Source of the DNA: Escherichia phage vB_EcoM_ESCO47
Sequence record: OM386662.1
Direction: 5' to 3' (one strand)
Length of the DNA stretch: 64,000 nucleotides
In this document: positions 2,934 through 63,358 of the stretch, piece after piece
Layout of the letters: each line of letters starts with the position of its first letter
Position numbering within the stretch: the stretch's first letter is position 1
Translations under genes and position numbers: made by a program
Notes under the pieces: generated by a model
What the model was told of the DNA's origin: nothing
The model's input: the letters and a program-made list of their open reading frames with translations, nothing else
The model's database searches: none

Positions 2934-2963
2934 GTTTACATCTCGGTAAAATGGTGTTATAGT
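2934..2963 (+). promoter_or_regulatory. T4-type early promoter (-35 GTTTAC, -10 TATAGT, conserved downstream box)
   Basis: GTTTACA, 18-nt spacer, TATAGT, then AGTCCTATCAA box and AGGAG RBS. Confidence 0.55.
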
Positions 2964-2991
2964 AGTCCTATCAAATAAAGAGGAGAACAAA

Positions 2992-3099
2992 ATGAAACTT
3001 TTGCTTATTGTATATGTTGTGATACAATACAACTATCCGATGTTCACATTCAATATGGTGAACAATATAATAAATCTTATTGAGAAGAGCATACAATGA
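2992..3099 (+). CDS. Small hydrophobic ORF (35 aa)
   Basis: ATG 7 nt after AGGAG; below ORF-track cutoff; ATGA overlap with next gene. Confidence 0.3.
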   Translation: MKLLLIVYVVIQYNYPMFTFNMVNNIINLIEKSIQ

Positions 3100-3305
3100 G
3101 TTTATACGATCCTAGCGGTGATTCTGAAAATGGCGTTATCCTTTTAAAAGGTGAACGAACCAAAGAAATGGATATTGATGATGTTGAAGTGTCAAGTTGG
3201 ACCTTGATACCTGGTGGGATTTGTCTTGAACAGGACGATAACTTCATTTGCCTAGACGCTGGCCAAGTAGAAGCTCTCTATAGTATTTTAAAACATAACC
3301 GTTAA
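3096..3305 (+). CDS. Hypothetical protein
   Basis: 69-aa ORF. Confidence 0.4.
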   Translation: MSLYDPSGDSENGVILLKGERTKEMDIDDVEVSSWTLIPGGICLEQDDNFICLDAGQVEALYSILKHNR

Positions 3306-3317
3306 GAGGAAATTATT

Positions 3318-3872
3318 ATGATTATTGAAACATCTGTTCTGTTTGGCGACCTGACAGCCGATGTAATTGATAATGCAATCGTGCTTAAACAAGAAGATGA
3401 TACAGTTGTTCTGACCATCCGGGATATTCAGAGTCTGTACGACTTGTCTATTATTGACACAGAGCAATATATTAGAGCGAACAGTCGACTTTTTAAAATC
3501 AATGATGAAGTCGTTGCCCGGTTACATCGTGGTGAAAACGGTTTTAATCTGGAAACCGAATGGGTTTGTTTATCCATTAATAACCGTTCAGAATTTTTAG
3601 AGAAAATTTTTAAACTGTTCCAAGAAGAGTGTGTACCTGAGCTTGAGTGGAAAGTCCCGGGTTGTGATGCAGTTATGCATTCAAGCGAAACCTTTGAAGG
3701 TGATGAAGAAGGTGATTATAATACTGAATTCAGTGTCCACCAACATCAAGGTCGCGATATGTTATCTATCATCCAAACCCACGATGGTGAAGCTGAAGTA
3801 GTATTCACTAAAGACGAATTGAAAGTTCTGGTAAAATACCTGAACACTATTATCCCAACTATGAACGCGTAA
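3318..3872 (+). CDS. Hypothetical protein
   Basis: 184-aa ORF with GAGG RBS. Confidence 0.5.
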   Translation: MIIETSVLFGDLTADVIDNAIVLKQEDDTVVLTIRDIQSLYDLSIIDTEQYIRANSRLFKINDEVVARLHRGENGFNLETEWVCLSINNRSEFLEKIFKLFQEECVPELEWKVPGCDAVMHSSETFEGDEEGDYNTEFSVHQHQGRDMLSIIQTHDGEAEVVFTKDELKVLVKYLNTIIPTMNA

Positions 3873-3881
3873 GGAATTATT

Positions 3882-4322
3882 ATGATTATTAATACAAACT
3901 CTTGGCACGCTAAATTACACGACCATTTTTATGACTGTCATTCTCGACCACACTCTTTATGTGCTTACTTCTGGAAAATTGTATGGGTCTGCTTTATTTG
4001 TTCTGTGCTTGCAGGCAGTACAGTCTTCGGTTTAACTGTTGCAGGTGCTGGTGTATTAGAGCATTTCTTTGTATTAAGTACTCCTGTTAGTTTGAGTCTT
4101 GGGTTTGTTTTAGGGCTGGCTATACTAGCGGTAGCATTTGGTTTAATGTACAGTCTAATGAATTTATGGTCCTGGTACGATTTACGTAAAGAAGAAAAAG
4201 AATTAGAACGAATTAAAGCCAAGCGTGAAGGCCGAGAAACTAAAGAAAACGTTTTCATTCAATATATCAAAGCTTGTAAATCTAAGATGTGTCCGGTAAT
4301 CCACTTCGAGGACATTAAATGA
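3882..4322 (+). CDS. Integral membrane protein
   Basis: Several hydrophobic helices (VWVCFICSVLAGSTVFGL..., LGFVLGLAILAVAFGLMY). Confidence 0.5.
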   Translation: MIINTNSWHAKLHDHFYDCHSRPHSLCAYFWKIVWVCFICSVLAGSTVFGLTVAGAGVLEHFFVLSTPVSLSLGFVLGLAILAVAFGLMYSLMNLWSWYDLRKEEKELERIKAKREGRETKENVFIQYIKACKSKMCPVIHFEDIK

Positions 4323-5305
4323 GAACTGTTATGAAGGGCTATTTTGGCTCACATCTTTATGGAACTAGTACGCCAGAATCTGACGTTGATTTTAAAGAAA
4401 TTTATGTCCCTCATGCTCGTGATATCTTGACCGGTAACGTTAAAGAACATATGAGCAAGAACACGAATAACACATCTTCTAAGAACACAAAAGACGACGT
4501 GGACCATGAGTTGTATAGTCTCAAATATTTCTTTAAACTAGCTGCGGACGGCGAAACCGTCGCATTAGATATGCTTCACACTCCACAAAGTCTAGTAGTT
4601 AAATCTGATTTGCCTGATGTATGGAAGTATATTCAAGATAACAGGTCTCGTTTCTATACAACTAACATGAAATCTTATTTAGGGTATGTCCGTAAGCAAG
4701 CTTCCAAATATGGTGTTAAGGGTTCTCGATTGGCTGTTCTTCGTCAAGCCCTTAAACGTTCTAATGAACGGGGACAATACTTTGATAATGGTGCAGTAAT
4801 TCGTTTATCACATATGAAGAATGTTCTGCCTGTAGGTGAATTTGCTTCGTGGGTTGAAACCGAAAACGAGAAAACAGGTAAGCAAACATTCTATAATCTG
4901 TTAGACCGTAAATTCCAAGACACGTTAACCAATAAAGAGTTCAATGCCATCCTGGTTAAACTGGAAGAGAACTATGGTGAACGTGCTCGTAAGGCGGAAG
5001 CCAACGAAGGTATTGACTGGAAAGCATTGAGTCATGCATGTCGTGGTGGACTTCAACTATTGGAAATTTACAAAACCGGCGACCTGGTTTACCCACTTCA
5101 GGATGCTCCATTTATTCTCGATGTTAAGCTTGGTAAACATACATTTAAAACTGTACAAGAATTCCTAGAAGATATCGTTGACCAAGTTGAACAAGCATCA
5201 GAACAAGCCGCTAAGAACGGTATGCAACAAAAAGTAGATATGAGTTTCTGGGATGATTTCCTTGAGCAAGTCTATCTCGAAAATCATAATTCTTACTATA
5301 AATAG
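4319..5305 (+). CDS. Predicted Pol-beta-fold nucleotidyltransferase-like protein
   Basis: GSHLYGTSTPESDVDF matches the hG[GS]...D.D minimal nucleotidyltransferase motif. Confidence 0.45.
   Translation: MRTVMKGYFGSHLYGTSTPESDVDFKEIYVPHARDILTGNVKEHMSKNTNNTSSKNTKDDVDHELYSLKYFFKLAADGETVALDMLHTPQSLVVKSDLPDVWKYIQDNRSRFYTTNMKSYLGYVRKQASKYGVKGSRLAVLRQALKRSNERGQYFDNGAVIRLSHMKNVLPVGEFASWVETENEKTGKQTFYNLLDRKFQDTLTNKEFNAILVKLEENYGERARKAEANEGIDWKALSHACRGGLQLLEIYKTGDLVYPLQDAPFILDVKLGKHTFKTVQEFLEDIVDQVEQASEQAAKNGMQQKVDMSFWDDFLEQVYLENHNSYYK
5297..5304 (+). promoter_or_regulatory. Late-promoter-like TATAAATA box
   Basis: Exact TATAAATA about 29 nt upstream of ATG 5333. Confidence 0.3.
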
Positions 5306-5332
5306 ATAAATAACTCTTAACTTGAGGTAAAT

Positions 5333-5614
5333 ATGAAAAAATTAGTAATTGGTTTATTTGCAGTAATGATGGCGTTCTCTGTTGGTGCTACCACGGGTGC
5401 TACCAGCGGTAGTGCAGGCGCTGGTGGTAACCAGTCTTCTGGGCCTTCCAATGGTTCGGTAAATGCGTCACATTCTCAGGGTATTGAGAACATTAAATCA
5501 AGCTATATTAATAGCACGGCCGGACAAGCAACTGAAGCATGGTCAAAGGGTCGAGTAGTTACTCGCTCCGTATTCTGTGATATGCCTAATTATGTTGCTA
5601 AGTGCGATAAGTAA
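5333..5614 (+). CDS. Secreted Gly/Ser/Asn-rich small protein
   Basis: Signal peptide MKKLVIGLFAVMMAFSVGA then low-complexity G/S/N stretch; two C-terminal Cys. Confidence 0.5.
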   Translation: MKKLVIGLFAVMMAFSVGATTGATSGSAGAGGNQSSGPSNGSVNASHSQGIENIKSSYINSTAGQATEAWSKGRVVTRSVFCDMPNYVAKCDK

Positions 5615-5619
5615 ATGTG

Positions 5620-5638
5620 GGGACCTTCGGGTCCCTTT
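5620..5638 (+). terminator. Rho-independent terminator with TTCG tetraloop
   Basis: GGGACC-TTCG-GGTCCC followed by TTT. Confidence 0.6.
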
Positions 5639-5666
5639 AGGGGGTTAAAATATTTTTAAAAAAGTA

Positions 5667-5695
5667 GTGTACATGCTTTTAGGATATGTTATTAT
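5667..5695 (+). promoter_or_regulatory. T4-type early promoter
   Basis: GTGTAC -35, 17-nt spacer, TATTAT -10, then AGACCTATC box. Confidence 0.5.
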
Positions 5696-5712
5696 AGACC
5701 TATCGAAACGAA

Positions 5713-6714: not shown

Positions 6715-6852
6715 GCTTATAGGAAGTTCTGAGATAACAAAAGCCATAAAGATGAATAATCATATGGCTTACCTCAAAGAAGGACACCAGGAACCTACTG
6801 AGGGCATAGAAATATTTAAAAATAATGATGTACAAATCAAAGAGGATATGTT

Positions 6853-7140
6853 ATGGATTTTATGCAAAAAATTAAAGCCGCAGTCGAACTCTATGCTCAT
6901 CGTATGGTTAGTTCTACGATGCAATATAGCGAGGAGGTTCGCCAGGACTCTTCCTTGAAAGGAAAAACTAAAGCCTTAATTACCTTAGATCGTTTGCAAA
7001 AGAATGCCGTAGAGATGCTCCAGTACGACAAGGGTGTATATAAGAAAGAACAGGAAGAGAAACTTAAATCTGAAAAATTAAAGAAAATCCCGAAGTCGGT
7101 TTGGTTCAGTGGAAAAAATACCGAAAAAAGTTTCTTTTAG
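6853..7140 (+). CDS. Hypothetical protein
   Basis: 95-aa ORF; overlapping alternative ORF 6752..6958 is less likely. Confidence 0.35.
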   Translation: MDFMQKIKAAVELYAHRMVSSTMQYSEEVRQDSSLKGKTKALITLDRLQKNAVEMLQYDKGVYKKEQEEKLKSEKLKKIPKSVWFSGKNTEKSFF

Positions 7141-7142
7141 TT

Positions 7143-7171
7143 GTTTACAAGGTCTATGGTTATGTTATTAT
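7143..7171 (+). promoter_or_regulatory. T4-type early promoter
   Basis: GTTTAC, 17-nt spacer, TATTAT, AGACCTATCAA box, GGAGG RBS. Confidence 0.55.
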
Positions 7172-7198
7172 AGACCTATCAACTACTGGAGGTAAAAC

Positions 7199-11130: not shown

Positions 11131-11160
11131 GTTTACAACGACGAAGAAACATGTTATGAT
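11131..11160 (+). promoter_or_regulatory. T4-type early promoter
   Basis: GTTTAC, 18-nt spacer, TATGAT; preceded by an 8-bp inverted repeat at about 11092-11117. Confidence 0.45.
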
Positions 11161-11200
11161 GAACCTTCAATAAATGAATTAATTGATATGGAGTATGGTT

Positions 11201-15645: not shown

Positions 15646-15674
15646 GTTTACTTTTGCCTATGGTGTGATACAGT
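15646..15674 (+). promoter_or_regulatory. T4-type early promoter
   Basis: GTTTAC, 17-nt spacer, TACAGT. Confidence 0.4.
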
Positions 15675-15702
15675 AGTATTAACAACGTGTAAAGGAGCTC
15701 GT

Positions 15703-16113
15703 ATGAAGATACAAACTGATTCTACCCTAACCGAGCTCCATGAGCAAATAGAAGAACTCGGACTACCATGGTTTGAAGTTCCAATTTATGATTTCACAAT
15801 AGTGCCCTTGACTCCTGAAGATGAGGATGTCGCATCAGAGATATTTGAAGATGTTGAAATCGGTGATTCGTATGGTGTGACTCTTTCGTACAGTTCTGTT
15901 ATAGTTCTTACGATAAACTTGAATGAATCATGGGTGAACACCTTAGCGCATGAAATCGTTCATATCAAAAACAGTATTGCGGCGCATAAAGGGATAAAGT
16001 GGTGTGTAAACAATGACGAGGCTGAAGCCTACCTAGTCGGATGGTTATCTGAACAACTTTTTAAATTTTACACAAATCGTTTAAAAACAGTTTACACACC
16101 AAATGATAAGTGA
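15703..16113 (+). CDS. HExxH-motif protein (possible small metallopeptidase)
   Basis: ATG after AGGAG; LAHEIVHIKNS contains HExxH. Confidence 0.4.
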   Translation: MKIQTDSTLTELHEQIEELGLPWFEVPIYDFTIVPLTPEDEDVASEIFEDVEIGDSYGVTLSYSSVIVLTINLNESWVNTLAHEIVHIKNSIAAHKGIKWCVNNDEAEAYLVGWLSEQLFKFYTNRLKTVYTPNDK

Positions 16114-16119
16114 TACTAT
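16090..16119 (+). promoter_or_regulatory. T4-type early promoter overlapping end of upstream CDS
   Basis: GTTTACA ... GATACTATCGACCTATCAA box. Confidence 0.4.
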
Positions 16120-16330
16120 CGACCTATCAACTACCGATGAGAACATTATGCTTATCAAAGATAAAGAAATTAAAGTTGACTGGTATTATTCGGTAAATGG
16201 CTATCCTGTACAGGTAACCAAAGTGACTGACCAAGATGTATGGTATCGTCCTTTGAAACGGCCTGACTCACCATTAATGGTATGTAATCATTCGGTGTTT
16301 TGTTCGGTAGCAAAGGAAATTAAATCATGA
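16103..16330 (+). CDS. Hypothetical protein (start may be ATG 16148)
   Basis: 75-aa ORF; first 45 nt lie inside predicted promoter. Confidence 0.35.
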   Translation: MISDTIDLSTTDENIMLIKDKEIKVDWYYSVNGYPVQVTKVTDQDVWYRPLKRPDSPLMVCNHSVFCSVAKEIKS

Positions 16331-16575
16331 GCCTGAAAATACACGCAAAGAGAAATGTTATTACCCTGAATCTTGACGACGAACGTTTGATTTTTATTAC
16401 TATCACAGATAAAAATATTGAAATTGCTAATGGTCCTAAGGCTTATTGCTGTCCTGTTAAGAATTGGAAACACGTAACATTTCTTACTTTAGGCGACCTC
16501 CTTGAAGATATTAAATTGGATTTAGGAATTCGAGATATCCAATACATTAAAAATATTATTGATGCTAACTGCTGA
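16327..16575 (+). CDS. Hypothetical protein
   Basis: 82-aa ORF, ATGA coupling. Confidence 0.4.
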   Translation: MSLKIHAKRNVITLNLDDERLIFITITDKNIEIANGPKAYCCPVKNWKHVTFLTLGDLLEDIKLDLGIRDIQYIKNIIDANC

Positions 16576-17879: not shown

Positions 17880-17915
17880 TGCTTTAAGACGGGTCTTCAA
17901 ATATTATGATATAAT
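17880..17915 (+). promoter_or_regulatory. Putative promoter upstream of gene 55 (atypical)
   Basis: TGCTTTA box 17880-17886; TATAAT 17910-17915 followed by AGACCTATGAA box; no clear -35. Confidence 0.3.
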
Positions 17916-17944
17916 AGACCTATGAATTGAGCCAAGAGGTACTT

Positions 17945-20841: not shown

Positions 20842-22526
20842 AATCATTTAAATTAAATCGTGTTCGTTATAAAAATATAATGTCTGTTGGGCAAAATTTT
20901 ATCGATATCCAATTAGATAAAGTCCAAAAGACCTTAATCACAGGTAAAAATGGTGGTGGTAAATCTACGATGTTAGAAGCCATCACTTTTGGACTTTTCG
21001 GCAAACCATTTCGTGATGTTAAGAAAGGACAAATCATTAATAGCACGAACAAGAAAGAGCTCTTAGTTGAGCTTTGGATGGAATTCGATGATAAAAAATA
21101 CTTCATCAAACGAGGTCAAAAGCCCAATATTTTCGAAATCTCCGTTGACGGTGTTCGTCTCGATGAATCTGCCAGCAGTCGTGACTTCCAAGAAGAATTT
21201 GAACGTAGCATCGGAATGTCCTATGCGTCTTTTAAACAAATCGTCGTTCTTGGTACAGCAGGGTATACCCCTTTCATGGCTCTTAGCACCCCAGCTCGTA
21301 GAAAACTTGTCGAAGACCTTTTAGAAGTCGGCACACTCGCTGAAATGGATAAAATCAATAAGTCTCAAGTTCGCGAACTTAATTCCCGGGGGCAAGTTCT
21401 CGATGCCAAGAAAGATGGTGTTATCCAACAAATTAAGATTTATAATGAGAATATCGAACGTCAAAAGAAATTATCCGGTGATAATGTAGCTCGTCTACAG
21501 AATATGTATGATGACCTGGCTAAAGAAGCTCGGTCATTAAAAGCAGAAATCGAAGAAGCTAATGAGCGACTACTTAATATCGTTCTTGACGAAGACCCTA
21601 CTGAGGCATTCAACAAGATAGGACAAGAAGCATTATTGATTAAATCTAAAATTGACTCATATAACAAAGTTATTAAGATGTATCATGACGGCGGTACATG
21701 TCCTACTTGTGCATCACAGTTGCACCAGGGTGATCCTATTGTCTCTAAGATTACCGATAAGCTTCATGAATGTAATCACTCATTCGAGCAACTTACCTGT
21801 CACAGAGATAATCTGAGTGTCCTAGTGGACGAATATAGAGCTAATGTTAAGACTAAACAGGACCTTGCATCTGATATTCGTACCAAGAAACAAGCAATGA
21901 TTGCCACTATTGATAAAGCTAAGAAAGTTAAAGCTGCAATAGAGCAAGCCTCAGCAGAATTTATCGACCATGCCGATGAGATAGCTTTGCTTCAAAAAGA
22001 ACTTGATAAAATCATTAAAACAAAATCGGATATCGTTCTTGAAAAATACCATCGTGGTATTATCACAGATATGTTAAAAGATTCTGGTATTAAAGGTGCT
22101 ATCATTAAAAAATATGTGCCTCTGTTCAACAAGCAGATTAACCATTACCTTAAAATCATGGAAGCTGATTACGTGTTTTCTATTGATGAAGAATTCAATG
22201 AATCTATAAAATCCCGTGGTCGTGAAGATTTTAGTTATGCTTCATTTAGCCAAGGTGAAAAAGCACGTATTGATATCGCTTTATTGTTCACATGGCGAGA
22301 TATTGCTGAAAAGGTTTCTGGTGTTAGAATCAATACATTAATTATGGACGAAGTCATGGATTCCGCGACTGATTCTGAAGGTATTAAAGCTATTTCAACA
22401 ATTCTTAACTCTCTAACCGATGCAAACGTGTTTATAATTAGTCACAGAGACCATGACCCACAAGCTTATGGACAACATCTTCAAATGAGCAAAGTTGGAC
22501 GATTTACTGTAATGAAAGCCTCTTAA
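20838..22526 (+). CDS. 46: Recombination ATPase gp46 (Rad50/SbcC-like)
   Basis: 562 aa; Walker A GKNGGGKST, CPTC zinc hook, C-terminal LIMDEV Walker B. Confidence 0.9.
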   Translation: MKSFKLNRVRYKNIMSVGQNFIDIQLDKVQKTLITGKNGGGKSTMLEAITFGLFGKPFRDVKKGQIINSTNKKELLVELWMEFDDKKYFIKRGQKPNIFEISVDGVRLDESASSRDFQEEFERSIGMSYASFKQIVVLGTAGYTPFMALSTPARRKLVEDLLEVGTLAEMDKINKSQVRELNSRGQVLDAKKDGVIQQIKIYNENIERQKKLSGDNVARLQNMYDDLAKEARSLKAEIEEANERLLNIVLDEDPTEAFNKIGQEALLIKSKIDSYNKVIKMYHDGGTCPTCASQLHQGDPIVSKITDKLHECNHSFEQLTCHRDNLSVLVDEYRANVKTKQDLASDIRTKKQAMIATIDKAKKVKAAIEQASAEFIDHADEIALLQKELDKIIKTKSDIVLEKYHRGIITDMLKDSGIKGAIIKKYVPLFNKQINHYLKIMEADYVFSIDEEFNESIKSRGREDFSYASFSQGEKARIDIALLFTWRDIAEKVSGVRINTLIMDEVMDSATDSEGIKAISTILNSLTDANVFIISHRDHDPQAYGQHLQMSKVGRFTVMKAS

Positions 22527-23239
22527 TGAGGCTTATGTTTACAGTTATCAAAATGCCAACGATGCATATTAGCAGGGATCCCTATTTTATCGCAATGAGG
22601 ACATTTAATTTTCTTGTCCTCTTTTTTCTTTCTGTTAGGATTTGATTTACAGAATTTTATATGCGGCTTTAACGCCGATAACTTAGTAGTTAAGCCACAA
22701 AACGGGCAAGAATCTTCTTTCCAAATTTTCGTGGCCATGGTTTTAATTATTTTATCCTTTGTTTCTTGATCAAGTTTTACTATTTTAGGCGTAGGGCCTT
22801 GTTTACAGTTATCAAAATGCCAACGTCTCATGTTTCCTTCAGTGCCAGTTAAACCGCAGTGTGGACATGTAATCTTTGGTTTATTTTTTGCAGACTCGGA
22901 CATTTTCTTACGAGTTTCAGCAGTGAATTCTTTGTTCTTTTGAACTTCTTGATTCTTACGTCGAAGCCATCCAAATAATTTGTTTTTGCTTCTATCTGCT
23001 TTAGGAGATGAGATAGTCATCATACGAGCAGCATATATTAAAGAGGCATTATCTGGATGGATTTTTACTAGCAGTTGATGTGCCAAATAATGTTCTTCTG
23101 GTGTTAAATCTACTAAGTTTAAAGCATCATCACTTCCACCTAAACATTGTGGTATAATGTAATGACGTTCTGTATAACCATCTAAACTTCTTGATTTAGC
23201 ATTGGTGATAAGCTTTTCGTATATTGAGTTATAATTCAT
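22523..23239 (-). CDS. Free-standing HNH homing endonuclease with three C-terminal zinc-finger-like repeats
   Basis: HYIIPQCLGGSDDALNLVDLTPEEHYLAHQL HNH motif; three CP(H/F)CG...H(F/I)...CK repeats; only sizeable minus-strand gene in the block. Confidence 0.65.
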   Translation of the reverse strand: MNYNSIYEKLITNAKSRSLDGYTERHYIIPQCLGGSDDALNLVDLTPEEHYLAHQLLVKIHPDNASLIYAARMMTISSPKADRSKNKLFGWLRRKNQEVQKNKEFTAETRKKMSESAKNKPKITCPHCGLTGTEGNMRRWHFDNCKQGPTPKIVKLDQETKDKIIKTMATKIWKEDSCPFCGLTTKLSALKPHIKFCKSNPNRKKKEDKKIKCPHCDKIGIPANMHRWHFDNCKHKPH

Positions 23240-23293
23240 TTACTAAATCCTTATTTGATACAGCAACAGATAAATTGATAAACCTATTTATAT

Positions 23294-23318
23294 TGCTTTA
23301 AACACGGAGATTTATAAT
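23294..23318 (+). promoter_or_regulatory. MotA-box middle promoter upstream of rpbA/45
   Basis: TGCTTTA then 19 nt to TATAAT (23313-23318). Confidence 0.4.
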
Positions 23319-23508
23319 GGCTGAATTTTCAACCGGACAACAACTTCTAGCTGTTCCAGAAATTAAAAAATATGTTCTGACTAATACCTTTTCAGGTGAA
23401 GAACATATTGTTACTGAAGAAATGCTCAAAAATGCTTTTAAAAATGAGTATTATAAAATAATGTCTAATCGTTCAAATGCTTTTATTGTTAGCGACTACT
23501 ATGACTAA
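23317..23508 (+). CDS. Hypothetical protein (45.2 position)
   Basis: 63-aa ORF with GGAGA RBS; its ATG overlaps the predicted -10. Confidence 0.35.
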   Translation: MAEFSTGQQLLAVPEIKKYVLTNTFSGEEHIVTEEMLKNAFKNEYYKIMSNRSNAFIVSDYYD

Positions 23509-26722: not shown

Positions 26723-29434
26723 ATGCAAGAATTTTATTTGACAGTAGAACAGATTGGTGACTCAATTTTCGAACGTTATATCGATTCTAACGGTCGTGAA
26801 CGTGTTCGTGAAGTAGAGTATAAGCCATCATTGTTTGCACATTGTCCCGAAAGTCAGGCTACAAAATATTTTGATATCTATGGTAAACCATGTACTCGTA
26901 AGTTATTCGCTAATATGCGTGACGCATCTCAGTGGATTAAACGCATGGAAGATATCGGTCTTGAAGCATTAGGTATGGACGATTTTAAATTGTCTTATAT
27001 CAGTGATACGTATCCGGTTGATATCAAATACGACCATACTAAAATTCGTGTAGCGAACTTTGACATCGAAGTAACATCTCCTGACGGGTTCCCTGAGCCG
27101 TCACAAGCAAAACATCCTATTGATGCTATCACTCATTATGACTCAATTGATGACAGGTTTTATGTATTTGACCTTTTGAATTCTCCATATGGTAATGTAG
27201 AAGAATGGTCTATCGAAATTGCGGCTAAGCTTCAAGAACAAGGCGGTGATGAAGTTCCATCCGAAATTATCGACAAAATTGTTTATATGCCGTTTGATAA
27301 TGAAAAAGAATTATTGATGGAATATCTCAATTTCTGGCAACAGAAAACTCCTGTCATTTTAACCGGATGGAACGTTGAGACATTTGATATTCCATATGTG
27401 TATAACAGAATCAAGAATATTTTTGGTGAATCCACAGCAAAACGGTTGTCACCACATCGCAAGACTCGTGTTAAAGTTATTGAAAACATGTATGGTTCAC
27501 GAGAAATCATTACATTGTTTGGTATCTCTGTTCTTGATTATATCGACCTTTACAAAAAGTTCTCTTTCACGAACCAACCGTCATATTCTCTGGACTATGT
27601 TTCAGAATTTGAATTGAATGTTGGTAAACTGAAATACGACGGTCCTATTTCTAAACTTCGCGAAAGTAATCATCAACGATATATAAGCTATAACATCATC
27701 GACGTATATCGTGTATTGCAAATTGATGCTAAACGCCAGTTCATTAACTTGAGCTTGGACATGGGTTATTATGCTAAAATTCAGATTCAATCTGTGTTCA
27801 GTCCAATTAAAACTTGGGACGCTATTATTTTTAATAGCCTTAAAGAACAAAACAAGGTGATTCCACAAGGTCGTTCGCATCCAGTTCAACCTTACCCGGG
27901 TGCTTTTGTTAAGGAACCTATTCCAAATCGATACAAATATGTGATGAGCTTCGACCTCACATCTCTGTATCCAAGCATCATTCGCCAAGTGAATATTAGC
28001 CCAGAAACAATAGCAGGAACGTTTAAAGTAGCTCCATTACATGATTATATTAACGCTGTTGCTGAACGTCCTTCTGATGTGTACAGTTGTTCTCCTAACG
28101 GCATGATGTATTATAAAGACCGTGACGGTGTTGTTCCAACTGAAATCACTAAAGTCTTTAATCAACGTAAAGAACATAAAGGTTATATGCTTGCGGCTCA
28201 ACGTAATGGTGAAATAATTAAAGAGGCCTTACATAATCCTAATCTTTCTGTTGATGAACCATTAGATGTTGATTATCGTTTTGACTTCACTGACGAGATT
28301 AAAGAAAAGATTAAAAAGTTGTCTGCTAAATCTCTTAATGAAATGTTGTTTAGAGCTCAACGTACTGAAGTTGCAGGTATGACTGCACAAATTAACCGTA
28401 AATTGCTCATCAACTCGCTTTATGGTGCACTTGGAAACGTTTGGTTCCGTTATTACGATTTGCGTAATGCAACTGCAATCACAACATTCGGTCAAATGGC
28501 TTTACAATGGATTGAACGTAAAGTTAATGAATATCTTAACGAAGTTTGTGGTACACAAGGCGAAGCTTTCGTTCTATATGGTGATACAGACTCCATTTAC
28601 GTATCTGTAGATAAAATTATTGATAAGGTTGGTGAATCTAAATTCCGCGATACTAACCATTGGGTAGACTTCTTAGATAAGTTCGCTCGTGAACGTATGG
28701 AACCTGCTATTGATAGAGGTTTCCGTGAAATGTGCGAATACATGAATAATAAGCAACATTTGATGTTCATGGACCGAGAAGCTATCGCTGGGCCTCCGCT
28801 TGGTTCTAAAGGTATTGGTGGATTCTGGACTGGTAAGAAACGTTATGCATTAAACGTGTGGGATATGGAAGGAACCAGATACGCTGAACCTAAGCTTAAA
28901 ATCATGGGTCTCGAAACACAGAAATCTTCGACTCCTAAAGCAGTACAGAAAGCTCTTAAGGAATGTATTCGTCGTATGCTTCAGGAAGGCGAAGAATCAT
29001 TACAAGAATATTTTAAAGAGTTTGAAAAAGAGTTCCGTCAGCTGGATTATATTAGCATCTCATCAGTGTCATCGGCAAATAACATTGCTAAATATGATGT
29101 CGGTGGATTCCCAGGTCCTAAATGTCCATTCCATATTCGTGGAATTCTGACATATAACCGAGCTATCAAAGGTAATATTGATGCTCCACAAGTTGTAGAA
29201 GGTGAAAAGGTATACGTTCTGCCTTTACGTGATGGAAACCCGTTCGGTGATAAATGTATCGCATGGCCATCTGGTACAGAAATCACTGATTTGATTAAAG
29301 ACGACGTGCTTCGTTGGATGGACTACACTGTTCTCCTTGAGAAGACATTTATTAACCCACTTGAAGGATTCACGTCAGCAGCGAAACTCGATTATGAGAA
29401 GAAAGCATCTCTGTTCGATATGTTCGATTTTTGA
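26723..29434 (+). CDS. 43: DNA polymerase gp43 (family B)
   Basis: 903 aa; exonuclease FDIE and polymerase YGDTDS motifs; near-identical to my recollection of RB69 gp43. Confidence 0.95.
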   Translation: MQEFYLTVEQIGDSIFERYIDSNGRERVREVEYKPSLFAHCPESQATKYFDIYGKPCTRKLFANMRDASQWIKRMEDIGLEALGMDDFKLSYISDTYPVDIKYDHTKIRVANFDIEVTSPDGFPEPSQAKHPIDAITHYDSIDDRFYVFDLLNSPYGNVEEWSIEIAAKLQEQGGDEVPSEIIDKIVYMPFDNEKELLMEYLNFWQQKTPVILTGWNVETFDIPYVYNRIKNIFGESTAKRLSPHRKTRVKVIENMYGSREIITLFGISVLDYIDLYKKFSFTNQPSYSLDYVSEFELNVGKLKYDGPISKLRESNHQRYISYNIIDVYRVLQIDAKRQFINLSLDMGYYAKIQIQSVFSPIKTWDAIIFNSLKEQNKVIPQGRSHPVQPYPGAFVKEPIPNRYKYVMSFDLTSLYPSIIRQVNISPETIAGTFKVAPLHDYINAVAERPSDVYSCSPNGMMYYKDRDGVVPTEITKVFNQRKEHKGYMLAAQRNGEIIKEALHNPNLSVDEPLDVDYRFDFTDEIKEKIKKLSAKSLNEMLFRAQRTEVAGMTAQINRKLLINSLYGALGNVWFRYYDLRNATAITTFGQMALQWIERKVNEYLNEVCGTQGEAFVLYGDTDSIYVSVDKIIDKVGESKFRDTNHWVDFLDKFARERMEPAIDRGFREMCEYMNNKQHLMFMDREAIAGPPLGSKGIGGFWTGKKRYALNVWDMEGTRYAEPKLKIMGLETQKSSTPKAVQKALKECIRRMLQEGEESLQEYFKEFEKEFRQLDYISISSVSSANNIAKYDVGGFPGPKCPFHIRGILTYNRAIKGNIDAPQVVEGEKVYVLPLRDGNPFGDKCIAWPSGTEITDLIKDDVLRWMDYTVLLEKTFINPLEGFTSAAKLDYEKKASLFDMFDF

Positions 29435-34577: not shown

Positions 34578-35476
34578 TGGCTATTTTCCGCGTACCTATC
34601 TTGAGTATGCGGTCTTATGAAACCGGACAGTATGCTATCCTTAAGGATGGCAACTTCCAACTTCATTTGCACCGTGCTAATCCAGGTGATGTGATTACAT
34701 ATCCACGTAATGCATCTGATATTAAAGAATGTGAACGTCTTTTCCCAGAATTTAAGTTTGTTCCATTATGGTATAAAGATAACGCGTATAACACTCGTAA
34801 ATATTTCTGGTCTGAAAATGAATTTGTGGTTGATTCATTAATTGCTTATTATGATTGTGATTTTCTAATCACAGATATCACTGGATATGATGGTGTTTTT
34901 GATGTAGAATTCAATTTCAATATCACTGCAGACCCTAATAAACCACGTTTTTATATTGACGAATTCTTAAAAACCGATATGTTGTCGGTTAATCGTTCAC
35001 TTCAAACTACTGTGTTGAATGAACGTCAAAAAGAAGTGCTGGTTAACGCAGGTGCAGATGGTAATAAGATTATCGTAACGCAGAAAGTTATACGTCCTTC
35101 CATCATGCAGCGTCTTGTAGGTGATTTGGCTCCTATTCATCTAGATGGTATTTTTCATCCATTTCGAATTAGTGACCCGTGCTATCGTTTTGAACAAGTG
35201 GTTGAATGTGCAATTCAATTAGGCCAACCACTTTATATAACCGATCCAAATAATAGCTTCGACAGAAATAAGTATCCTGAAGAAGCGCTGATTCGAATTT
35301 TTAAACCAACTAAAACTGAGTACTATCAAATTCTTAAAGGACGTCCGAAGATTCAATATTTCGAAAATCCTGAAGAAGTATTCCATCCAGGTCTTGGTGA
35401 GTTCATCTACTTTAACGCTTTAATTTCTTCGCCGTATAATATACCTAAATATGAAGATGTCGTAATCGAGGAATAA
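34577..35476 (+). CDS. Unknown 299-aa protein in the T4 beta-glucosyltransferase position (candidate DNA glycosyltransferase)
   Basis: ATGGC overlap with gene 42 stop; no resemblance to T4 beta-gt as I recall it; function inferred from position only. Confidence 0.3.
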   Translation: MAIFRVPILSMRSYETGQYAILKDGNFQLHLHRANPGDVITYPRNASDIKECERLFPEFKFVPLWYKDNAYNTRKYFWSENEFVVDSLIAYYDCDFLITDITGYDGVFDVEFNFNITADPNKPRFYIDEFLKTDMLSVNRSLQTTVLNERQKEVLVNAGADGNKIIVTQKVIRPSIMQRLVGDLAPIHLDGIFHPFRISDPCYRFEQVVECAIQLGQPLYITDPNNSFDRNKYPEEALIRIFKPTKTEYYQILKGRPKIQYFENPEEVFHPGLGEFIYFNALISSPYNIPKYEDVVIEE

Positions 35477-39085: not shown

Positions 39086-39090
39086 TAAAA

Positions 39091-39108
39091 AGGAGACTTC
39101 GGTCTCCT
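39091..39108 (+). terminator. Putative terminator hairpin with TTCG tetraloop
   Basis: AGGAGAC-TTCG-GTCTCCT then TTTCGGGG (weak T-run). Confidence 0.45.
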
Positions 39109-39114: not shown

Positions 39115-39144
39115 GTTTACACCGCTCTTAAATCATGTTACTAT
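39115..39144 (+). promoter_or_regulatory. T4-type early promoter
   Basis: GTTTAC, 18-nt spacer, TACTAT, AGACCTATCAA box, GGAG RBS. Confidence 0.55.
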
Positions 39145-39170
39145 AGACCTATCAACTACTGGAGAACAAA

Positions 39171-39686: not shown

Positions 39687-39716
39687 GTTTACAGGCCCCA
39701 CATACTGTGTTACTAT
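39687..39716 (+). promoter_or_regulatory. T4-type early promoter
   Basis: GTTTAC, 18-nt spacer, TACTAT, TCTATCAACTACAGAGG box. Confidence 0.5.
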
Positions 39717-39744
39717 CTTTCTATCAACTACAGAGGAAATTGAA

Positions 39745-40113: not shown

Positions 40114-40174
40114 TTGGTTTACGCCAAAGTTAAAACAAGATACTATAAACATAACAAATCAAGAGGAAATTAAC

Positions 40175-40427: not shown

Positions 40428-40458
40428 GTTTACATTATAGATGGACTATAGTATAGTA
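40428..40458 (+). promoter_or_regulatory. T4-type early promoter
   Basis: GTTTAC ... TATAGTAGTCCTATCAA box. Confidence 0.5.
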
Positions 40459-40486
40459 GTCCTATCAAATCAACTAAGGAGATAAA

Positions 40487-44470: not shown

Positions 44471-44480
44471 GTTAATTATA

Positions 44481-44505
44481 AGGAATCCTTCGGGATTCCT
44501 TTTTT
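44481..44505 (+). terminator. Rho-independent terminator with TTCG tetraloop
   Basis: AGGAATCC-TTCG-GGATTCCT then TTTTT. Confidence 0.6.
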
Positions 44506-44515: not shown

Positions 44516-44545
44516 GTTTACATCCTTGTAAAACAGTGTTATAGT
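44516..44545 (+). promoter_or_regulatory. T4-type early promoter
   Basis: GTTTAC, 18-nt spacer, TATAGT, AGTCCTATCAA box, GAGGAG RBS. Confidence 0.55.
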
Positions 44546-44573
44546 AGTCCTATCAAAACAAGAGGAGAACACT

Positions 44574-46596: not shown

Positions 46597-46626
46597 GTGT
46601 ACATCCTTAAAGAACAGTGTTACTAT
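46597..46626 (+). promoter_or_regulatory. T4-type early promoter
   Basis: GTGTAC, 18-nt spacer, TACTAT, TCTCCTATCAA box. Confidence 0.5.
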
Positions 46627-46654
46627 TCTCCTATCAACTTCAGGAGAAATCAAA

Positions 46655-47339: not shown

Positions 47340-47368
47340 GTGTACAATACCTGAGAACATGATACTAC
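47340..47368 (+). promoter_or_regulatory. T4-type early promoter
   Basis: GTGTAC, 17-nt spacer, TACTAC, AGACTTATCAG box. Confidence 0.4.
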
Positions 47369-47417
47369 AGACTTATCAGCTAAATGCCCCAACGTCCGTA
47401 AGACGGAAGAAAATATT

Positions 47418-50486: not shown

Positions 50487-50515
50487 GTTTACATCCTCTG
50501 TAGATATGTTATAAT
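50487..50515 (+). promoter_or_regulatory. T4-type early promoter
   Basis: GTTTAC, 17-nt spacer, TATAAT, TCTATCAACTACAGAGG box. Confidence 0.55.
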
Positions 50516-50556
50516 TCGTTCTATCAACTACAGAGGTAAGTAATACGATTACTGAT

Positions 50557-51051: not shown

Positions 51052-51080
51052 TTTTACTTCTCCTCTAGACATGATACTAT
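51052..51080 (+). promoter_or_regulatory. T4-type early promoter
   Basis: TTTTAC, 17-nt spacer, TACTAT, AACTTATCAACTAGAGGAG box. Confidence 0.45.
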
Positions 51081-51106
51081 AAACTTATCAACTAGAGGAG
51101 AATAAT

Positions 51107-51634
51107 ATGTTAGTTTATCGAGTAGAACGTAGTTTTTGTACCCAAAGAGAATATTTGCCTTCAGTCGGATACGAAAACGGTGAAATGGTTCGTACCTGGG
51201 AGATATCCTGGAATAAAGAACCACGCTCACCTTACGGATGGTCTGGCACCGACAACTCTGAAGAAACCTGGGAATTCCTTGATAAACACGGGATATTGTC
51301 AGGCAACTTCTATCATAACGACGGCAATATAAACGCCCCTAATCGTCCTACAATCAAAAATGATCACCTCTTATCAAAAAATATTTTAAAACAAAATAAC
51401 CTTGATTTCATAGACCAAATAGCTGATTGGTTAGAGACAGGTGAATTTTACTTTGCGTTTGATACGGTCGACACGGTGTACCGATGGTTTGATAACTCCG
51501 ATGACATAGAACTCTTGAAGGCTAAAGGTTACTACATCGCGGTCTATGATGCTCCTGACGTCATTTTAGGCGACTCTCAACTTTTGTTCAAACGTTCTTC
51601 GGCAGAACAAGTTGATTTTATTTTAATAAAATGA
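51107..51634 (+). CDS. Hypothetical protein
   Basis: 175-aa ORF. Confidence 0.45.
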   Translation: MLVYRVERSFCTQREYLPSVGYENGEMVRTWEISWNKEPRSPYGWSGTDNSEETWEFLDKHGILSGNFYHNDGNINAPNRPTIKNDHLLSKNILKQNNLDFIDQIADWLETGEFYFAFDTVDTVYRWFDNSDDIELLKAKGYYIAVYDAPDVILGDSQLLFKRSSAEQVDFILIK

Positions 51635-51663
51635 TGTACAAACTGATAGTATTTTGTTACTAT
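51635..51663 (+). promoter_or_regulatory. T4-type early promoter
   Basis: TGTACA, 17-nt spacer, TACTAT, AGACCTATCAA box, GAGGAG RBS. Confidence 0.5.
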
Positions 51664-51691
51664 AGACCTATCAAAACAAGAGGAGAACATT

Positions 51692-59430: not shown

Positions 59431-59444
59431 CTTTAGGGGTAATT

Positions 59445-59732: not shown

Positions 59733-59748
59733 GTTTCTGACTAGCGAA

Positions 59749-60225: not shown

Positions 60226-60237
60226 TTTCATAAAAGT

Positions 60238-60268
60238 GTTTACAGCTAAGTAGGACTATGATATAGTA
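60238..60268 (+). promoter_or_regulatory. T4-type early promoter
   Basis: GTTTAC ... TATAGTAGTCCTATC box, GGAGG RBS. Confidence 0.5.
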
Positions 60269-60293
60269 GTCCTATCTAAAGGAGGATAACATC

Positions 60294-60749: not shown

Positions 60750-60780
60750 GTTTACATCAAGGTAGGATTATGGTATAGTA
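60750..60780 (+). promoter_or_regulatory. T4-type early promoter
   Basis: GTTTAC ... TATAGTAGTCCTATCAA box. Confidence 0.5.
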
Positions 60781-60807
60781 GTCCTATCAAAATATGAGGA
60801 ACACAAA

Positions 60808-61008
60808 ATGACTAAGCTTTTTAAAGATGTTGAAATTGGTGAAAAATTTGTCCTGAATAATGGTCAGCAGCTTATTCGTGTAGCTTCTATAGCCGGACAA
60901 ACTCATAACTGCATCGCCCCGACGTATTGGACCCGATTCTTTATTGAGGATGACACCGAATGTTTAACTGTTGAAGAGCTTTTTGAACGTTCTGATATAA
61001 CCGAATAA
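60808..61008 (+). CDS. Hypothetical protein
   Basis: 66-aa ORF. Confidence 0.4.
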   Translation: MTKLFKDVEIGEKFVLNNGQQLIRVASIAGQTHNCIAPTYWTRFFIEDDTECLTVEELFERSDITE

Positions 61009-61084
61009 AATTGTACAAACTCCTGAGAGCAGAGTATAATGCTCTCATGGATTACAAAACATCAACTTACTTGAGGAAATTTAT

Positions 61085-61534
61085 ATGAACAATTACATGA
61101 CTCGTCGCGATATCCTGGCAGCTGGTGGTACTACGGTTGCTTACGTTCAGAATGGTAAATACCAGTCAGGTGAACCATCTAAAGCGGTTGCAGCACAACC
61201 TGGATTCTACTTCTTTGTTAAAGGTTTTAGTAACTCTCGTGTAGTAGCTGCCCGGTTTTATGTAGGTAATCAACGTTCTAAACAGGGACTTGATGGTATT
61301 GTAGCTAATATCCGTAAACAACGTTCTCAAGCTGCTCGCACCATGGCCACCAACAACGTAATTTACGAAGTGTTATACGTCCCAGCATCTAAGATGAAAC
61401 CTCTGACAACCGGCATTGGTAAAAGACAGTTAGTGATGGCTTTCACTCGCAATCACAGTTCAGATCTACAGACACTGGAAGAAATGAACCGAATTCTGGC
61501 CGACAACTTTAAATTCATCTTACAGAGTTACTAA
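61085..61534 (+). CDS. ndd: Ndd-position protein (nucleoid disruption in T4)
   Basis: 149 aa, position between rIIB and 52 as in T4; sequence identity not verifiable from memory. Confidence 0.45.
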
Positions 61535-61576
61535 TCCGGTAATAAAACGGCGTCTTAGGACGCCACTGGGGAAATT

Positions 61577-61741
61577 ATGCAACCGATTTTAACTTTTATC
61601 TGGTTAGTGACTGTTATTGTGTTGGTAACCCTTTTTGCAGCAGGTGTATGGGTTCCAGGTCCTTTTGTTGTTGGATTTATTTGTGTGTGGTTCATACTAG
61701 ACGCAATCGTTAAATTTTTAGTAACGGTATTTAACCGATGA
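61577..61741 (+). CDS. Small membrane ORF (54 aa) in the T4 ac position
   Basis: Hydrophobic; + strand alternative to the antisense ORF 61555..61749. Confidence 0.3.
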   Translation: MQPILTFIWLVTVIVLVTLFAAGVWVPGPFVVGFICVWFILDAIVKFLVTVFNR

Positions 61742-61882
61742 TTAAACAAATCTTTGGCTACTCGATAGCCCTTGCTGCTTTATTAGTGGCATTATATTAT
61801 GGTGTTATGTTCGGGCTAATCCAAGTCGTGCTTTTCATTTCTGATGTTATTATGGCACTACATTCACTAGTATGGTAAATTT

Positions 61883-63208
61883 ATGCAACTGAATAATCGT
61901 GATTTAAAAAGTATTATTGATAATGAAGCACTAGCGTATGCAATGTATACGGTTGAAAACCGTGCAATCCCAAACATGATTGATGGGTTTAAACCGGTTC
62001 AACGATTTGTTATTCATCGTGCATTGGACTTGGCTCGTGGAAACAAAGAAAAATTCCATAAACTGGCTTCAATCGCTGGTGGTGTAGCTGATCTCGGTTA
62101 TCACCACGGTGAATCTTCAGCACAAGATGCCGGTGCTCTGATGGCTAACACATGGAATAACAACTATCCATTATTAGATGGACAAGGCAACTTTGGTTCA
62201 CGAACGGTTCAAAAGGCTGCAGCATCTCGTTATATTTTTGCTCGTATCAGTAAAAATTTCTATAACGTCTATAAAGATTCTGAGTATGCTCCAGAACATG
62301 AAGATAAAGAACACGTTCCACCAAAATTCTATCTTCCAATTATCCCGACGGTTCTATTGAACGGTGTTTCTGGTATCGCAACCGGGTATGCAACAAGCAT
62401 TCTGCCTCATAGTTTTAAATCTGTTAAGAAGGCTGTATTACAAGCTCTTCAAGGTAAAAATATCACTAAGCCTAAAGTTGAATTCCCAGAGTTTCGCGGC
62501 GAAGTGCATGAAGTTGAAGACCGATATGAAATTCACGGCACATATAAATTCACATCTCGGACTCAAATGCAAATCACCGAGATTCCATATAAATTTGATC
62601 GTGAAACGTATGTGAGTAAAGTTCTCGACCCGTTAGAAGATAAAGGGTTGATTACATGGGAAGATGACTGCGGTGAACATGGTTTCGGATTTAAGGTGAA
62701 GTTCCGTAAAGAGTATTCGCTTCCGGACGATGAAGCTCTTCGTCATGAGAAAATCATGAAAGACTTTAGTCTTATTGAACGTCGTTCCCAGAACATTACT
62801 GTTATCAATGAAAAAGGCAAGTTGGCTGTATATGATAACGTTGTTGATTTGATTAAAGATTTTGTTGAAGTCCGTAAGACTTACGTTCAAAAACGTATTG
62901 ACAACAAAATCGTTGAATCAGAAAAAGCTTTTAAACTAGCTTTTGCCAAGGCGCATTTTATCAAGAAAGTTATTGCCGGTGAAATCGTGATTCAAGGCAA
63001 GACTCGTAAAGCTTTGACCGAAGAGTTATCACAAGTGGAAATGTATAAAGAACATGTAGACAAGTTAGTAGGTCTTAACATCTTCCATATCACATCAGAT
63101 GAAGCACGTAAACTAGCAGAAGAAGCTAAAGCTAAGAAAGAAGAAAATGAGTACTGGAAATCTACAGATGTCGTAGCAGAGTACACTAAAGACCTGGAGT
63201 CTCTATGA
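61883..63208 (+). CDS. 52: Topoisomerase II medium subunit gp52 (GyrA-like)
   Basis: 441 aa; N-terminus MQLNNRDLKSIIDNEALAYAMYTVENRAIPNMIDGFKPVQR matches my recollection of T4 gp52. Confidence 0.85.
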   Translation: MQLNNRDLKSIIDNEALAYAMYTVENRAIPNMIDGFKPVQRFVIHRALDLARGNKEKFHKLASIAGGVADLGYHHGESSAQDAGALMANTWNNNYPLLDGQGNFGSRTVQKAAASRYIFARISKNFYNVYKDSEYAPEHEDKEHVPPKFYLPIIPTVLLNGVSGIATGYATSILPHSFKSVKKAVLQALQGKNITKPKVEFPEFRGEVHEVEDRYEIHGTYKFTSRTQMQITEIPYKFDRETYVSKVLDPLEDKGLITWEDDCGEHGFGFKVKFRKEYSLPDDEALRHEKIMKDFSLIERRSQNITVINEKGKLAVYDNVVDLIKDFVEVRKTYVQKRIDNKIVESEKAFKLAFAKAHFIKKVIAGEIVIQGKTRKALTEELSQVEMYKEHVDKLVGLNIFHITSDEARKLAEEAKAKKEENEYWKSTDVVAEYTKDLESL

Positions 63209-63288
63209 GCTTCACAGGCCTAGCCCTCGGGTTCTTGGTCACAGTCACATTGTTAGTCATCTTACTTCTATGGTTAGACCGTGAATGA

Positions 63289-63309
63289 GGAGCCTTCGGG
63301 CTCCTTTTT
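63289..63309 (+). terminator. Rho-independent terminator with TTCG tetraloop
   Basis: GGAGCC-TTCG-GGCTCC then TTTTT. Confidence 0.6.
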
Positions 63310-63329
63310 GTGCATTTTTACACAAAACA

Positions 63330-63358
63330 GTTTACATGCGCGTCAAGCATGATATTAT
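63330..63358 (+). promoter_or_regulatory. T4-type early promoter
   Basis: GTTTAC, 17-nt spacer, TATTAT, AGACCTATCAA box. Confidence 0.55.

Follow-up and report, generated by a model that had tools for sequence, protein, structure and literature searches.

A conserved box around the predicted start sites of a putative early-promoter family in Escherichia phage vB_EcoM_ESCO47

For phage RB69, Nolan et al. (2006, Virol J 3:30; PMC1524935) listed 58 predicted early-promoter sites in their Additional file 3, where the text says 57, and reported that C is favoured at -3 to -1 in RB69, RB49 and 44RR. The early promoters of T4 carry 'additional regions of consensus' beyond the UP, -35, TGn and -10 elements (Hinton 2010, PMC2988021). 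PeSL (promoter-early stem-loop) cassettes have been described for RB49/phi1, T4/PST and KVP40/nt-1, and not for RB69-like phages (Arbiol et al. 2010, PMC2839356; Comeau et al. 2014, PMC4122927), and an attenuator role has been reported for PeSL in RB49. Here we analysed 64,000 nucleotides of Escherichia phage vB_EcoM_ESCO47 (record OM386662.1; the whole stretch is called the window below), in which an initial annotation had noticed 18 repeated promoter-like sites followed by a conserved box. Our results suggest, with a probability of about 0.75, that the members of the motif family are early promoters of an RB69-like T4-type phage, dependent on sigma-70, and that the box is a start-site module within them. 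Both the family itself and the upstream half of its box are already known from RB69 early promoters and PeSL cassettes, and no new kind of element is revealed. The output is a predicted promoter map comprising 19 early transcription units with their predicted starts.

All 18 repeated sites were read and found to be present, each on the + strand and each before a gene; the site listed at 51635 starts at 51634, and an additional site at 40117 brings the family to 19. The -35 had been described as GTTTAC or GTGTAC, which is correct at 16 of the 18 sites and incorrect at 51052 (TTTTAC) and 51634 (ATGTAC). Within the hexamer, T, T, A and C at positions 2, 4, 5 and 6 are invariant (18/18), and position 1 is a G in 16/18. 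The spacer, annotated as 17-19 nt, is 17 nt long in 7/19 and 18 nt long in 12/19 sites, and a length of 19 nt was never seen. The extended -10 reads TGnTA(T/C)(T/A)(A/G)T, with TG ahead of the -10 in 17/18 and T, A as its first two bases in 18/18, while the region upstream of the -35 is A/T-rich and UP-like; by inspection, 15/18 sites have A four bases ahead of the -35. As the annotation had it (AGGAG before an ATG), every site is followed by a Shine-Dalgarno sequence, GAGG or GGAG, and then by an ATG. The leader measures 20-23 nt in 14/19 cases, and the first G of the predicted transcript stands at +11 in 11/19. Across the 18 sites, the information content is 14.6 bits for the -35 block, 13.7 bits for the -10 block and 13.9 bits for the 12-nt box. 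The box, which had been described as strictly conserved, is degenerate at 11131 and 15646, partial at 39687 and shifted by one base at 50487.

The gap between the -10 and the box is zero in 18/19 copies and one base at 50487. Because the box adjoins the -10 at a fixed offset, it spans -6 to +6, given a start seven bases after the -10. It consists of a discriminator, AG(A/T)CC, at -6 to -2, the pair T(-1)A(+1), and then TCAA(A/C). We infer from the sequence that transcription starts at the A seven bases after the -10. The 51-nt RB69 promoter models of Nolan et al. end exactly on the predicted +1 at every RB69 site compared; for example, Pe:6863 spans 6813-6863, and the predicted start is 6813. 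Similarly, the GenBank record of T4 names an early promoter Pe133295, and the predicted +1 there is 133295. At the T4 promoters carrying CTATCAAC, the predicted +1 falls at 27044, 167050, 166771, 163637, 146839, 146107 and 6594. T(-1) was found in 36/39 and A(+1) in 31/39 RB69 promoters, the corresponding values in T4 being 17/23 and 18/23, and no feature is more constant than T(-1)A(+1) in any of the phages compared. The suggestion of a fixed transcript 5' end is therefore borne out as far as the box is tied to the -10 and the start base agrees with Nolan et al. and Pe133295, the start itself remaining a prediction. The name 'downstream leader box' is half true: +1 to +6 would be transcribed, but -6 to -1 are untranscribed promoter DNA and are equally conserved. 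The 19 sites are listed below.

2934..2975 (+), predicted early promoter spanning -35 to +6, predicted start 2970, box AGTCCTATCAAA, ATG at 2992; a terminator-like hairpin lies just upstream.
5667..5707 (+), predicted early promoter, -35 GTGTAC, predicted start 5702, box AGACCTATCGAA, leader of ~32 nt, before the nrdC.10 homologue.
7143..7183 (+), predicted early promoter, predicted start 7178, box AGACCTATCAAC; the -10 lies within the dyad GGTCTAT/ATAGACC; identical to RB69 Pe:53683 across the compared interval.
11131..11172 (+), predicted early promoter, predicted start 11167, degenerate box GAACCTTCAATA (box score -1.8); the orthologous RB69 Pe:48639 has the same sequence.
15646..15686 (+), predicted early promoter, predicted start 15681, weak box AGTATTAACAAC, driving the open reading frame (ORF) 15703-16113; the RB69 alignment ends at its -35 hexamer.
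16090..16131 (+), predicted early promoter, predicted start 16126, box CGACCTATCAAC, before the 55.6 homologue.
39115..39156 (+), predicted early promoter, predicted start 39151, box AGACCTATCAAC, with a UUCG-loop hairpin upstream.
39687..39728 (+), predicted early promoter, predicted start 39723, partial box CTTTCTATCAAC, before the imm.1 homologue; orthologue RB69 Pe:19761.
40117..40158 (+), predicted early promoter missed by the initial annotation, GTTTAC, 18 nt, TACTAT, weak box AAACATAACAAA, predicted start 40153, before the imm homologue; orthologue RB69 Pe:19331.
40428..40469 (+), predicted early promoter, predicted start 40464, box AGTCCTATCAAA, dyad GGACTAT/ATAGTCC, before the sp homologue; orthologue RB69 Pe:19020.
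44516..44557 (+), predicted early promoter, predicted start 44552, box AGTCCTATCAAA, terminator hairpin at 44480-44501, before the mrh.2 homologue; RB69 Pe:14950 has a different core (TAAGAT ATTCTTACTTAC) inside conserved flanks.
46597..46638 (+), predicted early promoter, -35 GTGTAC, predicted start 46633, box TCTCCTATCAAC, before the modA homologue; TTCTCCT can pair with AGGAGAA of the Shine-Dalgarno, and an RB69 alignment block begins 9 nt upstream of the -35.
47340..47380 (+), predicted early promoter, -35 GTGTAC, -10 TACTAC, predicted start 47375, box AGACTTATCAGC, leader of 43 nt, before the srd homologue; orthologue RB69 Pe:12088.
50487..50528 (+), predicted early promoter, predicted start 50523, perfect TATAAT, box CGTTCTATCAAC displaced by +1; spacer CCTCTGTAG and CTACAGAGG at the Shine-Dalgarno are complementary.
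51052..51092 (+), predicted early promoter, -35 TTTTAC, predicted start 51087, box AAACTTATCAAC, before the motB.2 homologue; 11-bp inverted repeat of spacer and Shine-Dalgarno, TTCTCCTCTAG/CTAGAGGAGAA (fold z = -4.7).
51634..51675 (+), predicted early promoter, -35 ATGTAC, predicted start 51670, box AGACCTATCAAA, before the cef homologue; orthologue RB69 Pe:6863.
60238..60279 (+), predicted early promoter, predicted start 60274, box AGTCCTATCTAA, dyad AGGACTA/TAGTCCT; orthologue RB69 Pe:165795.
60750..60791 (+), predicted early promoter, predicted start 60786, box AGTCCTATCAAA, dyad AGGATTA/TAGTCCT (fold z = -3.5), before the ndd.1 homologue; orthologue RB69 Pe:165283.
63330..63370 (+), predicted early promoter driving the motA homologue, predicted start 63365, box AGACCTATCAAA, leader of 32 nt, UUCG-loop hairpin upstream; orthologue RB69 Pe:162713.

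Box enrichment was examined by scanning the window. Exact CCTATCAA occurs in 10 copies on the + strand and in none on the - strand, and each copy directly follows a -10. Allowing up to 2 mismatches, the composite of -10 and box, TAYWRTAGWCCTATCAA, gave 16 matches compared with 0.22 expected from 100 shuffles, among which the largest value was 3; 13 of the 16 matches are listed promoters. When the window was scanned with the -35 and -10 matrices only, blind to the box, 17 of the 18 sites were recovered, 40117 was gained and one weak site appeared on the - strand; 51052, with its TTTTAC, fell below the cut-off. Because the box-blind scan recovers 17/18 sites, the box was not created by the way in which the sites had first been selected. 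A scan with a generic sigma-70 consensus did not discriminate (51 sites in 39-52 kb compared with 42.3 expected), and only the family-specific composite motif was informative. The sites form clusters at 2.9-16.1 kb, 39.1-51.7 kb and 60.2-63.4 kb, and none lies in the replication gene block at 16.2-39.1 kb. The resemblance to T4 early promoters noted by the initial annotation was upheld by the neighbouring genes: the sites precede homologues of motA, srd, modA, imm, imm.1, sp, cef, motB.2, ndd.1, nrdC.8 and nrdC.10, and all of the RB69 counterparts are in the published list of predicted RB69 early promoters (PMC1524935). Within the motA coding region, at 63918-63953, there is also a boxless promoter-like site (GTTTAC, 18 nt, TAAGAT) that is kept in RB69; it may be a chance match preserved by coding constraint.

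To gauge constraint on the box, 15 orthologous promoter pairs of the window and RB69 were compared. Differences per site amounted to 0.01 in the -35, 0.07 in the -10, 0.10 in box positions -6 to -1, 0.11 in box positions +1 to +6 and 0.12 in the TGn, compared with 0.21-0.23 in the spacer, the upstream region and the later leader. The box has thus diverged at about half the rate of its flanks (Fisher P = 2e-4), and its untranscribed half (-6 to -1) is conserved as much as +1 to +6. The same box-blind scan was also applied to RB69, the first 22 kb of JS98 (Dhakavirus) and T4. In RB69, 39 promoters were found with the post--10 consensus AgaCCTATCAAA, and the box reaches at least 12 bits in 19/39 of them, compared with 14/19 in the window. 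Among 10 promoters in the JS98 segment, CTATC is in place in 6 and the box reaches at least 12 bits in 3. The consensus of the 23 T4 promoters is weaker: CTATC is in place in 6/23, including ACAACTATCAAC ahead of T4 motA, and none reaches 12 bits with the window box matrix. Box information stands at ~14 bits in the window and ~8.6 bits in RB69, with ~5 bits after the -10 in T4. In viral contigs of IMG/VR, the exact composite motif was found in 78 stretches, mostly on contigs of ~120-172 kb and otherwise on short fragments; the large contigs hold several copies each, and JS98 and IME341 are among the genomes.

The RB69 early promoters (PMC1524935) agree with those of the window in Mosigvirus lineage, strand, genes and positions, and in the start base. 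Because the model of Nolan et al. ends at the start base, TCAA(A/C) at +2 to +6 lies outside it. The RB69 set differs in that its box is less uniform, and several of the window promoters are recombinant. With the T4 Pe promoters, the window shares the GTTTAC -35, the TGn-extended -10, the A-rich upstream region and T(-1)A(+1), and several T4 Pe promoters have ACAACTATCAAC or TACCCTATCAAC at the box position; the low information after the T4 -10 sets them apart. The conservation of the discriminator and of +2 to +6 in RB69- and JS98-like phages is a point beyond the papers cited and offers a testable case for start-site tuning of strong sigma-70 promoters.

The box is also restricted to one promoter class. 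Away from a promoter, a box score above ~12.5 bits occurs once, as a chance match at 35319. The 19 family sites carry a GTTTAC-type -35 and not a MotA box (TGCTTtA) centred at -30, and in none of the window's 14 candidates with a MotA box does the box score reach 5; since these candidates are boxless, the box was ruled out as a feature of any -10. At 17880-17926, upstream of the gene 55 homologue, TGCTTTA is followed by TGATATAAT and then AGACCTATGAA, a box-like sequence at a promoter lacking a GTTTAC -35, where the distance from the MotA box to the -10 does not fit the middle-promoter rule. In the four leaders of 32-43 nt (5667, 47340, 50487 and 63330), the box remains beside the -10, away from the Shine-Dalgarno. 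Because the box is fixed to the -10, is equally kept in its untranscribed half and is restricted to promoters, it appears to be part of the start-site region of early promoters.

Several stem-loops overlap or adjoin these promoters. In one form, a stem is made by the box and the 3' half of the spacer, with the -10 in its loop (GGTCTAT/ATAGACC at 7143; GGACTAT/ATAGTCC at 40428 and 60238), the dyads lying at 7151-7176, 40441-40463, 60251-60274 and 60761-60785. In the other, the 5' half of the spacer pairs with the Shine-Dalgarno, as in the repeats at 51052 and 50487. Complementarity to the Shine-Dalgarno extends over 9, 11 and 7 bp at 50493-50536, 51058-51102 and 46626-46647, the 5' arm being the spacer or, at 46597, the -10 plus discriminator. 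Because this arm lies upstream of the promoter's own start at 50487, 51052 and 46597, only read-through RNA could hide the ribosome-binding site. Internal dyads were thus seen at 7143, 40428, 60238, 60750, 46597, 50487 and 51052, or ~7/19 promoters, and spacer-box dyads around the -10 with other arm sequences are common in RB69, JS98 and T4 early promoters. Terminator-like hairpins lie just upstream of the -35 at five or six promoters (2934, 5667, 11131, 39115, 44516 and 63330), and the remaining promoters have neither an internal dyad nor an upstream hairpin. The G+C-rich hairpins at ~2890-2925, 5620-5645, 39087-39108, 44480-44501 and 63283-63305, mostly with a TTCG loop and a T-run, abut the -35. 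From their sequence, the hairpins upstream of the -35 look like terminators of the preceding transcription unit. Hairpins that hide the ribosome-binding site in long transcripts are known from T4 e, soc and I-TevI. mobE of phage Aeh1 likewise has a hairpin of this kind (Gibb and Edgell 2009, cited in PMC3014915). The promoters at 50487, 51052 and 46597 resemble this type in that only read-through RNA could hide the Shine-Dalgarno. Unlike this type, however, the 5' arm in the window is an early-promoter spacer, a minority of copies is involved, and the box itself is left unexplained.

Comparison with RB69 also revealed that genes gained or lost between the two phages have their breakpoints within these promoters. 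In total, 16 ends of alignment blocks between the window and RB69 lie within ~70 nt of a promoter. The promoter at 2934 is a chimera of the upstream part of RB69 Pe:58138 and the downstream part of Pe:57689, that at 5667 combines Pe:55296 and Pe:55018, and that at 39115 follows Pe:20971 up through the -35 and Pe:20537 from the -10 on. Three small RB69 cassettes, namely the mobD.2a region, ORF102c and ORF041c, are missing from the window; where in RB69 each is flanked by a pair of early promoters, the window has one chimeric promoter. Conversely, ~880 bp at 15652-16533 have no RB69 match and include ORF 15703-16113 between two early promoters, where RB69 has the single promoter Pe:43945. Synteny with RB69 also breaks at the -35 of 51052. 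Near-identical promoter-leaders occur at non-orthologous sites (2934/44516 and 44516/51634), and a consensus core at 44516 takes the place of a different core found in both RB69 and T4. The early promoters thus also serve as recombination joints for cassette swaps relative to RB69. By analogy, the chimeras and the extra ORF match PeSL-mediated module shuffling, and gene conversion offers a possible route to cassettes more uniform than those of RB69. As in the window, the conserved early promoter of a PeSL cassette ends in a Shine-Dalgarno and an ATG, the cassettes lie in variable regions before small ORFs, and indels between relatives break inside them. The PeSL stem-loops, inside the promoter or over the -10, have counterparts in only part of the window promoters. 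Mini-circles excised in the course of infection are a further PeSL trait.

Given these stem-loops, the box might be kept as the 3' arm of a spacer hairpin that forms in read-through RNA and attenuates transcription, or blocks translation where the Shine-Dalgarno is paired, so that each gene is expressed only from its own promoter. We regard this as possible but tentative. It gains from a permutation test, in which the pairing of each downstream region with its own spacer was better than cross pairing (P = 0.026 in the window; in RB69 none of 5000 permutations matched, likewise in T4), and from the preservation of pairing by distinct sequences, including AGGATGAT/ATCATCCT and GACAAGACTA/TAGTCTTGTC as well as the compensatory pair TTCTCCTCTGG/CCAGAGGAGAA, which keeps the stem in RB69 Pe:7443, the orthologue of 51052. 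In addition, Arbiol et al. described stem-loops between the -35 and -10 or over the -10, one of them with terminator-like activity (PMC2839356). However, a convincing arm is present in only ~7/19 promoters, and the strong boxes at 2934, 16090, 39115, 44516 and 63330 are armless; thus, the stem-loop cannot be the main reason for box retention, and the hairpin as sole explanation was ruled out, since about two thirds of the window copies have no 5' arm. No U-tract follows the hairpin, which is therefore not a canonical intrinsic terminator. A somewhat more doubtful explanation places the function in the RNA, with AUCAA(A/C) at the transcript 5' end tuning translation, through ribosomal protein S1 or 30S contact, or mRNA stability, through access of RNase E/G or RegB; such a function may also exist as a secondary role beside that of the start site. 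Given the short leaders and a first G at +11, the box does resemble a leader element. The first base of the Shine-Dalgarno is +10 or +11 in most copies, and from this position and the 20-23 nt leaders it follows that a bound 30S subunit would reach the 5' end; the leaders are A-rich, G-free up to the Shine-Dalgarno and unstructured, the predicted transcripts having minimum free energies of 0 to -3.4 kcal/mol, and RB69 shows the same geometry. RegB cleavage, for its part, requires GGAG plus context (PMC3014915). Against an RNA element stand the equal conservation of the untranscribed -6 to -1, the adherence of the box to the start rather than to the Shine-Dalgarno in long leaders, and the fact that CCTATCAA is never found ahead of genes without their own promoter; moreover, Rfam covariance models gave no match at gathering score on either strand of the whole window. 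The shared translational control element proposed in the initial annotation fails on the same behaviour in the 32-43 nt leaders and on the single strong promoter-free copy at 35319, and nothing was found in our analysis that points to the RNase site or the protein site it had also suggested. A general translational enhancer was likewise ruled out, as the box is absent at promoter-less ribosome-binding sites and does not track the Shine-Dalgarno in long leaders.

The recombination data raise the question of whether the box has any function of its own, or whether its likeness among promoters stems only from recent cassette duplication, recombination and gene conversion. The three chimeric promoters, the 16 block ends near promoters, the near-identical promoter-leaders at non-orthologous sites and the core replacement at 44516 speak for such homogenisation. 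Nevertheless, we consider homogenisation alone improbable: the spacers between -35 and -10 are mostly unrelated though the box is kept, the box persists in Mosigvirus, Dhakavirus and partly T4, and orthologous boxes diverge at half the flank rate. The box could also be the recognition site of a phage or host factor specific to early promoters, such as the factor behind early shut-off, since it is specific to the early class, absent from the middle-promoter candidates and overlaps the start site, where a repressor would act; this seems very unlikely. The box has no internal symmetry, and we know of no candidate factor. Neither AsiA nor ModA accounts for early shut-off (PMC2988021; PMC3014915), but T4, where shut-off has been described, has a weak box, and some orthologous early promoters are boxless. 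For these last two reasons, we also give little credence to the idea that the start-site box and the spacer dyads around the -10 together form the cis target of T4-type early shut-off, read by a phage-induced factor or modified polymerase.

We therefore return to the interpretation of the box as a start-site module of sigma-70-dependent early promoters. The box has a fixed attachment to the -10, is restricted to one promoter class, diverges more slowly than its flanks and is present in related genera. Several observations weigh against this interpretation. Polymerase core contacts prefer G at +2, and the box does not match that optimum. The +1 positions of the ESCO47 promoters are predictions, start selection and escape are a proposed reason for the retention of the box, and the uniformity of the window box could result from gene conversion more than from selection. 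In addition, RB69 orthologues such as Pe:14950 and Pe:20971 are boxless, as are most of the T4 early promoters, which are very strong (PMC2988021); thus, the box is not required for early promoter activity.

Each copy is organised as a short cassette whose geometry hardly varies. It opens with an A-rich region ahead of a GTTTAC -35, which a spacer of 17-18 nt separates from the TGn-extended -10; the box follows, then a Shine-Dalgarno beginning ~10 nt inside the predicted transcript, and an ATG ~22 nt from the predicted start. Under the start-site interpretation, T(-1)A(+1) would set initiation on the A seven bases after the -10, and TCAA(A/C) would be the first transcribed bases of a G-free, unstructured leader. 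We propose that, because the polymerase is bound through four strong elements, start-site choice and promoter escape would become limiting, and selection would then favour a single well-performing discriminator together with T(-1)A(+1) and an initial sequence rich in A and free of G. A second force probably acts on the box bases in about one third of the copies, where the box forms the 3' arm of a stem-loop with the -10 as its loop, as in the PeSL architecture, and a third is probably inter-cassette recombination, which would move gene modules and make the cassettes more alike. Regarding other effects of the start-site sequence, T at -1 is reportedly, according to work from 2018 attributed to Vvedenskaya and colleagues, not a favoured context for capping with nicotinamide adenine dinucleotide (NAD). 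According to a preprint, A at -1 favours NAD capping. A reading in terms of DksA and guanosine tetraphosphate (ppGpp) was dropped, as no discriminator motif was found to be associated with DksA sensitivity in T4 early promoters (PMC6024815).

The window as a whole has a G+C content of 37%, and its + strand holds nearly all of its long ORFs. The DNA polymerase region shows ~95% identity to Escherichia phages ST0, NHEP29, Shf125875 and moha, while the variable region at 39-52 kb shows 87% identity over 79% of its length to its best relatives, including RB69, in reverse orientation. RB69 is classified in the genus Mosigvirus, Tevenvirinae, and judged by its sequence the window is likewise Mosigvirus, that is, an RB69-like T4-type phage. 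The gene order given by the RB69 alignment is tk / nrdC region, 55, 47, 46, 45, 44, 62, regA, 43, uvsX, 41, 61, dda, 39, rIIA/B and motA. On the - strand, a 238-aa ORF at 22523-23239 lies in a segment without RB69 alignment (22516-23327) and may be an inserted gene.

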